This document shows, piece by piece, positions 45,198-46,899 of a stretch of DNA of 64,000 nt; the stretch's first letter is position 1; the number at the start of each line of letters is the position of its first letter. The stretch lies in IMG/VR virus record IMGVR_UViG_2839610755_000002; one strand, written 5' to 3'. The stretch comes from a virus (Duplodnaviria > Heunggongvirae > Uroviricota > Caudoviricetes). The notes below the pieces were generated by a model, which searched no databases, was not told the origin of the DNA, and saw only the letters and a program-made list of their open reading frames with translations. Made by a program: the position numbers and the translations under genes.

Positions 45198-45242
45198 TGG
45201 AGCGAGGATTGGTTGATATCCTCCACCTCCTGAAGAAATTAT

Positions 45243-45268
45243 GCCCGGCATCAACCGGGCATTTTTTT
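45243..45268. terminator. stem-loop GCCCGG-catcaa-CCGGGC then ATTTTTTT
   Basis: Same hairpin as after c1, here with a clear T-run; between convergent genes. Confidence 0.5.
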
Positions 45269-46302
45269 CATTCAGCCGCCACGGGCTTTAATACACCCGC
45301 ATCGAGTAGTTTACGCGTCAACCACTGCTGGCCTTTACCCGTTAATTGAGGCGTCAACCGTATCTGGTAGCCATCTTCATCATCCAGCACCACTTCTTTC
45401 ACCGTGAAATACCCGGCGTTGATGTACTGCTGGAACGGCACATTTTTACGTCCGCCGGACGCTATCAGGATGCCGTTCTCCCGTAACCAGGCAAACAGCG
45501 CATTTTGCTTAAGTCCAACAACCTTTGCAAAGTTCCCGATCAGGATTCCATTAGCCGCTGATACCCGGTCGGCAAAATCGACTTTAGGGGCGGCGGCCAC
45601 CAGCTGTTGTTCCAACTGCATTTTCTGTTCTGCCAACTCGGCAGCCAGGCGCAGTGCTTCGGGGAGTGTTTGGGGGATTGCTGGAGAAGCCGTGCTAGCC
45701 TGCTGCAATTCTTCCAGTTTGTCGATCAGCGAACGGCGGACCGCTTTTGACTCGCGCGCGGCGACTCGCAGGGCTTGTTTGAAAGTCATGGTGATAATGT
45801 CTATGTTTGCACCATTTTTGCGACCTACACTTTTTGTGTAGGTCTCACCTTCAAGCTCATCTACAACCTTCTCAATAAACTTATTATTTCTTACTAATGG
45901 TTCCCCACATAACTTACGCGCCTCATTAACCATCTTTAACAGCGTCTGGCTGTCGATTGTGTCTCCGGTGTTGGGGATAGCATCCATGACCGGTGCTGGT
46001 GTGGTTGCTGTCAAAGGCTTTGTAACGACAACATCTGGTTTGCTTGCTTTCATTCTGTGTGCCTCCTTGCGTGTTTCGGCTGCGACGGTTGCGTAATTCA
46101 GATGCCCCTGTTCGAGCAGGTATTCGCGGATATCAGACAACAGGATACGGTGAACCGCGTTCTTGTCCTTTCTCCGGTAAAGTTGTTTGGTGATCATGAA
46201 GTAGTTGGCAATAACGCCAGGTATATCCCTGGTACTGATACAGGCAGTGTGCTGTTCAATTGCCTCGATCATCTCTTCACGGGTAACTAACGATGTTCTC
46301 AT
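45268..46302 (-). CDS. antirepressor-like protein with KilAC-type C-terminal domain, copy B
   Basis: 344 aa; C-terminal NVPFQQYINAGYFTVKEV; N-terminal 77 aa near-identical to copy A. Confidence 0.6.
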   Translation of the reverse strand: MRTSLVTREEMIEAIEQHTACISTRDIPGVIANYFMITKQLYRRKDKNAVHRILLSDIREYLLEQGHLNYATVAAETRKEAHRMKASKPDVVVTKPLTATTPAPVMDAIPNTGDTIDSQTLLKMVNEARKLCGEPLVRNNKFIEKVVDELEGETYTKSVGRKNGANIDIITMTFKQALRVAARESKAVRRSLIDKLEELQQASTASPAIPQTLPEALRLAAELAEQKMQLEQQLVAAAPKVDFADRVSAANGILIGNFAKVVGLKQNALFAWLRENGILIASGGRKNVPFQQYINAGYFTVKEVVLDDEDGYQIRLTPQLTGKGQQWLTRKLLDAGVLKPVAAE

Positions 46303-46520
46303 AGTCCCTCCTGAGCAGAAGCGTTAACAGGGAGGCACCAGTAACTGAGAGAATTGCGTGAATAAGTGGAAAAGCGGGCAGAGAAAATACAGGGTGCATC
46401 CGGAAGCTGAGAGCGAGCCTCATCTTCTGTCGGTGCAATAACGAAGTGATAGTGACGTTTCTGGCAGGAGTAAAAGCGCCAGATAAATTCAGGGCGTGCG
46501 CAAGGATTGGCATTAACCAT
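46299..46520 (-). CDS. Icd-like small protein, copy B
   Basis: 73 aa (MVNANPCARPEFIWRFYSC...), C-terminal 60 aa near-identical to copy A; overlaps the antirepressor start by 4 nt. Confidence 0.5.
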   Translation of the reverse strand: MVNANPCARPEFIWRFYSCQKRHYHFVIAPTEDEARSQLPDAPCIFSARFSTYSRNSLSYWCLPVNASAQEGL

Positions 46521-46820
46521 AGTTACGGCCTCATGTACAGGTTTAACAACCTGCTACCCGCTGTCAAACAGGTGGCAGGACGTGACGGGGTTGACAGACT
46601 GGCGTACATGAAACCAGCAGGCCGAAGCCTCCCCATCACGCCCCACCATAATTCGGGCGTAACGTGGTTTACGGACACAAAAATACCGCAATATCGGATA
46701 TCTGCGGTTGTCCGCATGTACATTCAGGCTGTCAAACCCGGTCGCAGAATTTACTACGACGTAGGAACTATAAGCCTGAACAACAGGAAGATCAATAGTC
46801 TGGCGTTCGATGGTAGTTTA

Positions 46821-46853
46821 TTTGCTCTAATAAATCAAAATTATTAGAGCAAT
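46821..46853. promoter_or_regulatory. inverted pair of C1 operator-like sites upstream of icd/ant-like module B
   Basis: TTTGCTCTAATAAATCA and AAAATTATTAGAGCAAT abutting each other. Confidence 0.55.
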
Positions 46854-46899
46854 AAGCGGTATCGTAAAAATCAATACAATCGCAATCATATGAATAGAA

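Follow-up and report, generated by a model that had tools for sequence, protein, structure and literature searches.

The 64,000-nucleotide (nt) stretch of viral DNA considered here, hereafter the window (IMG/VR record IMGVR_UViG_2839610755_000002; Duplodnaviria, Heunggongvirae, Uroviricota, Caudoviricetes), comes from a P1-like plasmid prophage of the E. coli O157:H7 type and carries two modules of the c4-icd-ant kind, one between c1 and pacB (copy A) and one between dbn and gene 5 (copy B). Copy B, at positions 45236-46868 on the minus strand, is a complete P1-type immI cassette, with an operator pair, promoters, a leader, the C4 RNA, its targets, icd, ant1/ant2 and a terminator. It is probably a self-contained and functional one, i.e. 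an independently keyed antirepressor/immunity module inserted at the boundary of dbn and gene 5. Its anatomy, the complementarity of its RNA elements, its mosaic structure, its insertion site and its distribution were directly observed. The c4-icd-ant system is well known, and copy B is a well-understood type of module in an unusual place. An earlier note, made from the window alone, had called the locus a second, intact module, which is correct because ant of copy A is frameshifted, a single A being absent at 17403/17404, whereas icd and ant of copy B are uninterrupted.

In the alignment with the annotated P1 immI, the order of the parts of copy B is the same throughout: operator, two promoters, a1, b1, C4, a2, b2, icd, ant1 with the nested ant2, and terminator. 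The features are the following.

46821-46837 (plus strand) and 46837-46853 (minus strand): inverted pair of C1 operators at the left end of the cassette (consensus ATTGCTCTAATAAATTT, 3 and 1 mismatches, respectively)
46840-46868, minus strand: promoter-like TTTACG-17-AATAAT found by consensus scan, counterpart of the C1-controlled P2c4/P51a of P1
46767-46795, minus strand: promoter-like TTGATC-17-TATAGT found by scan, aligning with the annotated P1c4, counterpart of the constitutive P1c4/P51b of P1
46678-46773, minus strand: leader with the upstream C4 targets (Rfam RF03163, c4-a1b1; P1 alignment)
46729-46735, minus strand: a1, UUGACAG, aligned to the annotated P1 a1
46715-46721, minus strand: b1, GUACAUG, aligned to the annotated P1 b1
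46678-46707, minus strand: leader hairpin with U-run, after a1 and b1
46571-46647, minus strand: C4 antisense RNA, 77 nt by alignment with P1 (Rfam RF01695)
46604-46610, minus strand: b' loop within C4, CAUGUAC
46591-46597, minus strand: a' within C4, CUGUCAA
46527-46567, minus strand: downstream targets a2 and b2, exact complements of a' and b'
46561-46567, minus strand: a2, UUGACAG
46532-46538, minus strand: b2, GUACAUG, abutting and overlapping the Shine-Dalgarno sequence of icd (GAGG)
46299-46520, minus strand: icd, open reading frame (ORF) of 73 amino acids, homologue of the P1 cell-division inhibitor (NCBIfam NF033153)
45268-46302, minus strand: ant1, antirepressor ORF of 344 amino acids (Pfam PF03374)
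46051-46053, minus strand: start of ant2 (Met84), in frame inside ant1 and preceded by AAGGAGG, as at P1 ant2
45236-45262, no strand assigned: bidirectional terminator hairpin closing the cassette on the right, with the same sequence as the hairpin that follows copy A

The promoter-like site at 46840-46868 is overlapped by the operators and is placed relative to them as in the P1 annotation; the abutting inverted operator pair described in the earlier note was recovered, and copy A has a single site. The leader matches the c4-a1b1 family at 46721-46773 with 52.0 bits (gathering score 46.7), and the Rfam scan returned no isrK match for copy B. As for the C4 RNA itself, the family match at 46568-46653 reaches 70.7 bits (gathering score 45), and its predicted minimum-free-energy fold has the same shape as those of the P1 and P7 C4 RNAs, including the long closing stem, the UUCG hairpin and the second hairpin bearing b' that typify the family. 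All four targets (a1, b1, a2 and b2) are exact 7-nt complements. At the protein level, Icd of copy B scores 49.8 bits with NF033153 (cut-off 25) and shares 82% identity with P1 Icd and 88% with Icd of copy A, and its stop codon overlaps the start of ant1 in an ATGA at 46299-46302. Ant1 is 77% identical to P1 Ant1 and bears a KilAC domain at residues 231-333 (PF03374, E = 7e-32). Pfam is without a model for Icd, and no sequence relative of Ant was returned from the PDB.

Regarding the insertion site, the marker genes are arranged as follows in the window.

15965-16816, plus strand: c1
18523-21200, minus strand: pacB and pacA
up to 45197, plus strand: tail/baseplate genes 7, 24, 6 and 5
46900-47898, minus strand: dbn
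47898-49268, minus strand: ban

Copy B had been said to adjoin ban; it actually lies directly downstream of dbn, with ban further away. In P1, dbn and gene 5 are separated by a 46-bp gap containing a bidirectional terminator, in place of which the window has the 1.7-kb insertion that constitutes copy B; the ban-dbn region matches P1 at 98% identity as far as the stop codon of dbn. The insertion junctions showed neither a target-site duplication nor a repeat. A cassette at this site is found in about 6 of the 72,556 plasmids of PLSDB, and close sister plasmids, e.g. that of the O111:H- strain 11128, are devoid of it there. Two plasmids, pTX376-2 (NZ_CP038288.1) and pF1273-3 (NZ_CP038378.1), are 100% identical to the window over the compared stretches. 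The latter, which is the one of the two that was inspected in full, carries a further c4-icd-ant module beside kilA (locus L006, positions 511-3170 of the plasmid, outside the window), i.e. at the canonical site, so that it has three modules in total, two of them within the window. The canonical map position extends from sim, or its replacements, to kilA-repL, and copy B, between dbn and gene 5, sits elsewhere. The idea that copy B would simply be the canonical immI was consequently rejected, since immI is flanked by sim-type genes and kilA in P1, P7 and pF1273-3, the last of which contains both modules. This map position is a trait of the P1 map and not of the mechanism, and a second c4/icd region has been reported in a D6-like plasmid (PMC6799933).

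An inversion was also considered as the origin of the ban-side position, as the window contains two inverted copies of IS1203 (41403-42717 and 58154-59468) that are 100% identical over 1315 nt. It was rejected, since sister plasmids devoid of the insertion sequence keep the order dbn, cassette, gene 5; neither pTX376-2 nor pF1273-3 has the IS1203 copy at 41403-42717. The 15.4 kb separating the two IS1203 copies contain copy B and ban, and each IS1203 copy carries an ALIL frameshift pseudoknot.

The recognition elements of such modules, the short a' and b' of C4, compare as follows, with the targets of copy A added.

P1: a' CUGUCAA, b' CACUAAC
P7: a' CUGCUAA, b' CACAAUC
Copy B: a' CUGUCAA (the P1 allele), b' CAUGUAC
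Canonical module of pF1273-3: a' as in P1, b' as in P7
Copy A: a' AGGCCAA, b' CCUUGGACG
Targets of copy A: a-type UUGGCCU and UUGGUCU, b-type GUCUAAGG and CGUCUAAGG

Set beside the immI loci of P1 and P7, as the earlier note had advised, copy B keeps the P1 a' and has a different b', besides its non-canonical location. Its b' differs from that of P1 by three substitutions (CACUAAC to CAUGUAC), which are exactly mirrored in b1 and b2, i.e. the change is seen in three places, and its b2 departs from the P1 allele at three of the seven positions and from the P7 allele at four. The canonical C4 of pF1273-3, for its part, has the a' of P1 together with the b' of P7. The C4 of copy A is unrelated to that of copy B in both elements, and the targets of copy A match its own C4, two of them with a G-U pair, and no complementarity was found between a' or b' of either copy and the targets of the other. 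The five C4 RNAs (P1, P7, copy B, canonical module of pF1273-3 and copy A) are predicted to fold alike. For copies A and B, the cognate b' duplexes are predicted at -11.9 to -13.9 kcal/mol and the crossed ones at -3.1 to -5.6 kcal/mol; over the five RNAs, the ranges are -11.7 to -13.9 kcal/mol for cognate and -2.3 to -6.9 kcal/mol for non-cognate duplexes. The suggestion of two distinct immunity specificities in the prophage is therefore supported by separate C4 RNAs with their own targets. Since neither P1, P7, copy A nor the sister canonical module has the b' of copy B, this cassette is most likely locked solely by its own C4.

Concerning the way in which such a lock would work, RNA processing, translational repression, binding of Ant to C1 and the ecological role are all proposed for copy B by homology with the P1 immI. 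Work of the Schuster laboratory on P1 is said to have described the processing of C4 by RNase P and a Rho-dependent termination before ant. In copy B, the constitutive promoter would keep producing the leader-C4 transcript, from which C4 would be cut, and C4 would then base-pair, by its b' loop and its single-stranded a', with the b2 and a2 targets that immediately precede icd. This pairing would mask the ribosome-binding site of icd and, ant being translationally coupled to icd, no antirepressor would be made. Once C1 is inactive, the operator-covered promoter would add transcription. If C4 is outrun, for instance when the cassette enters a cell without matching C4, Icd and Ant1/Ant2 would be made, and Ant1/Ant2 would inactivate the shared C1 repressor. 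Several elements of this scheme are documented for the known system: C4 stops ant synthesis around the ribosome-binding site and is the basis of P1/P7 heteroimmunity (PMC12197685), ant expression requires icd (PMC8201110), Ant1/Ant2 is an antirepressor and C4 is trans-acting (PMC8546580).

The distribution of these specificities was surveyed with a pattern anchored on the conserved C4 stems, which gave 120 IMG/VR loci and three loci on genome contigs and, together with the reference loci, 130 P1-type modules. These display two a' alleles, seven b' alleles and 12 combinations, and each readable target site exactly complements a' or b' in all modules except one. In the latter (L052, minus strand, C4 at offset 124), b' reads CAUUCGU and fits b1, and b2 is the P1-type GUUAGUG, so the icd/ant of this locus would be predicted to escape its own C4. 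The combination of a' and b' found in copy B occurs 12 times, its recognition allele being uncommon but not unique. The elements follow one another along the transcript in the interleaved order a1, b1, b', a', a2, b2 (46532-46735, minus strand, in copy B), so that changing one specificity element alone needs two separate exchange tracts; all four P1/P7 combinations of a and b are nonetheless common, which argues for strong selection on pairing.

The most serious challenge to an independent key comes from a', since a', a1 and a2 are identical among P1, copy B and the canonical module of pF1273-3, with a duplex energy of -8.3 kcal/mol in all three. The energies of the short-loop duplexes of a' are uninformative, as a' can also pair elsewhere in the spacer, and exact complementarity was used instead. 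One could then imagine that copy B is not independently keyed, that the resident canonical C4 and the P1 C4 cross-repress it, and that the cassette is redundant. We regard this as unlikely: it is b2 that abuts the Shine-Dalgarno sequence of icd, it differs from the P1 and P7 alleles, non-cognate b' duplexes are weak, and the exact register of b1, b' and b2 over seven alleles would be hard to explain were b pairing dispensable. In addition, P1-type modules residing in the same genome often have the same a' and always a different b'.

Several points nevertheless weigh against a functional and independently keyed copy B. The shared a' and a2 make partial cross-repression by P1 and by the canonical module of pF1273-3 possible. 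Among 15 pairs of co-resident P1-type modules, none shares the same combination of a' and b', which would be expected by chance with a probability of 0.14. Besides, the prophage of the window may be defective: the tail gene homologous to gene 7 (40741-41409) is cut at its 3' end by the first IS1203, and copy A has a frameshift in ant, which makes present-day function in this plasmid uncertain.

The comparison of the two copies in the window shows of which pieces copy B is made. As previously noticed, the same terminator hairpin, ATGCCCGGTTGATGCCGGGCATAATTT, stands at both loci (45236-45262, and 16815-16841 on the minus strand); it scores as a terminator on both strands. Two direct repeats of 300 nt link the loci, one of 98% identity (46044-46343 and 17708-18007) and one of 94% (45270-45569 and 16851-17150), a similarity far beyond chance. 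In terms of proteins, the last approximately 165 amino acids of both Ants, including the KilAC domain (PF03374), are nearly identical, in agreement with the shared C-terminus described before. The shared N-terminal stretch, which had been set at 77 amino acids, does exist but is slightly longer, residues 1-86 being the same except for T77A. The centres of the two Ants are unrelated, that of copy B being P1-like and that of copy A belonging to ORF6N (PF10543). Both Icd proteins count 73 amino acids and, as had been seen, have common C-termini and different N-termini (MVNANPCAR in copy B, MATIPTPTH in copy A), the differences being confined to residues 2-9 and one later position.

More precisely, a sliding identity profile divides copy B into segments of different affinity. 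Its leader, C4 and targets show 90-98% identity to P1 and no relation to copy A, the leaders being of the c4-a1b1 type in copy B and of the isrK type in copy A according to Rfam, which bears out the divergence of leaders pointed out in the earlier note. From about codon 10 of icd to the Ant2 start, the nucleotide identity is 94-100% to copy A and only 60-80% to P1; the centre of Ant is again P1-like (90-98% identical to P1), the KilAC end is about 90% identical across copy A, copy B and P1, and the terminator is common to copy A only and not to P1. The block shared with copy A stops exactly at the Ant2 start codon and thus corresponds to icd plus the Ant1-specific extension. Copy B is therefore a P1-type cassette that shares only this block, the KilAC end and the terminator with copy A. 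The idea of a recombinational mosaic between P1-like phages is supported, this segment-by-segment profile showing the mosaic directly; the idea of a duplicate of the c1-proximal copy is not, in view of the P1-type leader, C4 and Ant centre. A recent conversion of copy B by copy A within the plasmid was also considered for the origin of the block and found unsupported: every CAUGUAC module in which the block is readable has it, 93-100% identical to the block of copy B, and this includes modules of other genomes and other locations.

In this context, two explanations deny copy B any role. It could firstly be an assembly artefact, i.e. a collapsed or duplicated repeat, for which nothing speaks beyond the near-identical 300-nt repeats; this is hardly credible, since the flanks of copy B are unique on both sides and collinear with P1, and its junctions recur in several independent complete plasmids and IMG/VR contigs. 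It could secondly be a mosaic left behind when P1-like genomes recombined, non-functional, hitch-hiking and without current role. The extreme mosaicism, the rarity of the insertion site and the existence of recombinants between modules (e.g. L064 and L117) would fit with such an origin. Yet all ORFs and RNA elements of copy B are intact, the three compensatory changes are found at three separate places and several sites have conserved this type of cassette with an unchanged left boundary, which makes this explanation very improbable.

Copy A deserves a separate description, its features being the following.

16815-18519, minus strand: IsrK/C4-type module between c1 and pacB, i.e. copy A as a whole (Rfam matches, ORFs)
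18503-18519: operator, a single C1 site
18351-18428, minus strand: isrK-like leader (Rfam isrK, 60.8 bits, gathering score 50)
18349-18371, minus strand: terminator-like hairpin with U-run, ending the leader
18245-18320, minus strand: C4 (Rfam C4, 75.9 bits)
17963-18184, minus strand: icd, ORF of 73 amino acids, Icd homologue
16849-17966, minus strand: ant, frameshifted
16815-16841, minus strand: terminator

Compared with the intact 372-amino-acid gene of most relatives, ant of copy A misses one A between 17403 and 17404, reading CACTC-CCCTC instead of CACTCACCCTC, and is thereby split into two ORFs (17193-17966 and 16849-17364). The deletion adjoins a run of C, and a sequencing error is therefore possible. 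The site between pacB and c1 is commonly occupied, with 267 plasmids covering at least 80% of copy A, and an extra "ant" insertion at this position has been reported in RCS47 and pTZ20_1P (PMC6906374). The loops are invariant among the 32 A-type C4 copies that were retrieved, a number obtained with a tight search pattern that may have missed diversity.

The fact that operator, leader, C4 and icd of copy A are still intact despite the frameshift in ant raises the question of whether the C4 RNA alone is selected, as a trans-acting shield against superinfecting relatives of the same specificity, with icd and ant as baggage that has not yet decayed. The ability of C4 to work in trans (PMC8546580) would fit. 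On the other side stand the intact ant of copy B, the conservation of the ATGA coupling and of the ant2 start, and the full-length ant (340-372 amino acids) in 18 of the 20 completely read A-type relatives, the two further cases being truncated. We thus consider a role as a mere C4 shield quite unlikely, and a complete antirepressor/immunity module remains the preferred explanation for copy B.

The survey also informs on the mobility of these modules. The 19 modules with the CAUGUAC allele were classed by their flanks, and all those with readable flanks are non-canonical, lying either downstream of dbn or on the cre or ref side. In the modules with enough alignable sequence, both inverted operators are there, and the homology among cassettes at different genomic sites sets in exactly at them. 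Modules at the dbn, ref and pacB-c1 sites share the terminator hairpin of copy B, whereas those on the cre side have a different one, and the middle part of Ant is exchangeable between a P1 type and an ORF6N type. These antirepressor modules are discrete, portable cassettes. The survey maximum per contig is reached in IMGVR_UViG_2703718869_000013 (97 kb, P1-like), where four P1-type C4 modules (L026, L061, L109 and L131), each with a distinct combination of a' and b', coexist with an A-type module, i.e. five antirepressor cassettes.

Some loci stand apart. L064 (dbn, module, cre flank) and L117 (dbn, module, c1 flank) have chimeric contexts and look like genome rearrangements via recombination between cassettes at different sites. 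L153, in which an A-type C4 leader is joined to a 344-amino-acid Ant with a copy-B-type C-terminal end, is a further recombinant of the two module families. Finally, an exact P1-type C4 match on a 2.9-kb contig labelled as a Bacillota metagenome-assembled genome (L010, JAFAFU010000019.1) is probably due to contamination or misbinning.

Judged from these sequences, immI specificity would not just oppose P1 to P7 and would rather be a modular code (a' by b') borne by portable, stackable cassettes, and this combinatorial code, together with the stacking, is a more interesting lead than the copy B locus itself. We tentatively suggest, with somewhat less than even confidence, that a combinatorial "lock and key" system made of RNA operates in P1-like phage-plasmids, in which two a' and at least seven b' alleles are kept in exact register with four interleaved targets, and up to five cassettes are stacked over at least four sites, each adding one immunity specificity through its trans-acting C4 and one immunity-breaking specificity through its Ant, copy B being one move in an arms race among related phage-plasmids. 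No description of the allele repertoire, of the operator-to-terminator boundaries of the cassettes or of their stacking was found in the searchable literature. With several differently keyed modules, a wider range of superinfecting relatives could be silenced and a wider range of resident prophage immunities broken; if this holds true, a multi-keyed prophage would silence more incoming relatives and, as an invader, would evade a larger variety of resident C4 RNAs. P1-like phage-plasmids occur commonly among pathogenic and drug-resistant strains of E. coli and Salmonella, and their coexistence, exclusion or mutual induction depends on immunity specificity. The code of a' and b' may therefore permit a sequence-based prediction of cross-immunity among P1-like plasmids.

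Over the window as a whole, 17 matches to the C1 operator were observed against 0.35 expected by chance. Besides the pair of copy B, a second bivalent operator (52465-52492), made of two sites with a 6-bp overlap, one of which is a perfect consensus, lies just upstream of a large methyltransferase gene that ends at 55524.

Among the known systems, the Salmonella Gifsy-1 locus IsrK/STnc1160/orf45/anrP resembles copy A, both having an isrK leader followed by a C4-family RNA, a small ORF and a coupled antirepressor gene; order and translational coupling are documented for Gifsy-1 (PMC4825925). IsrK is the Hfq-binding RNA of Gifsy-1, and the isrK-type leader links the cassette between pacB and c1 to this Salmonella system. 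Copy A nevertheless differs in that it lies in a P1-like plasmid between pacB and c1, has a C1 operator and has an Icd homologue as the small ORF, and copy B differs by its leader, which is of the P1 type and not of the isrK type. In the immI of P22, antirepressor synthesis is likewise limited by an antisense RNA, sar, acting on ant (PMC12197685). However, sar arises as a true cis-antisense RNA across the start region of ant, unlike a processed RNA of the trans type that has two recognition elements, and the P22 locus is without icd. In N15 (CB RNA, icd, antA), a small RNA processed from the leader pairs with repeats on both sides and silences the downstream genes. In P4, the CI RNA, also processed from the leader, pairs with upstream and downstream repeats (seqA and seqC) and silences downstream genes (PMC4825925). 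Both differ from copy B by their RNA sequences and proteins. The closest counterpart of copy B is the immI of P1 and P7, with which it shares the order of the parts, a C4 that is presumably processed, the position of a2 and b2 at the ribosome-binding site of icd, the overlap of icd and ant1, the internal ant2 and the KilAC domain, as well as a C1 operator at the promoter. It departs from P1 and P7 by its location in the gap between dbn and gene 5 instead of the sim-kilA region and by its b' (CAUGUAC versus CACUAAC in P1 and CACAAUC in P7), and from P1 by an inverted operator pair in place of the single Oc4 and by the mosaic block that gives it an icd and an Ant1 N-terminus of the copy A type.

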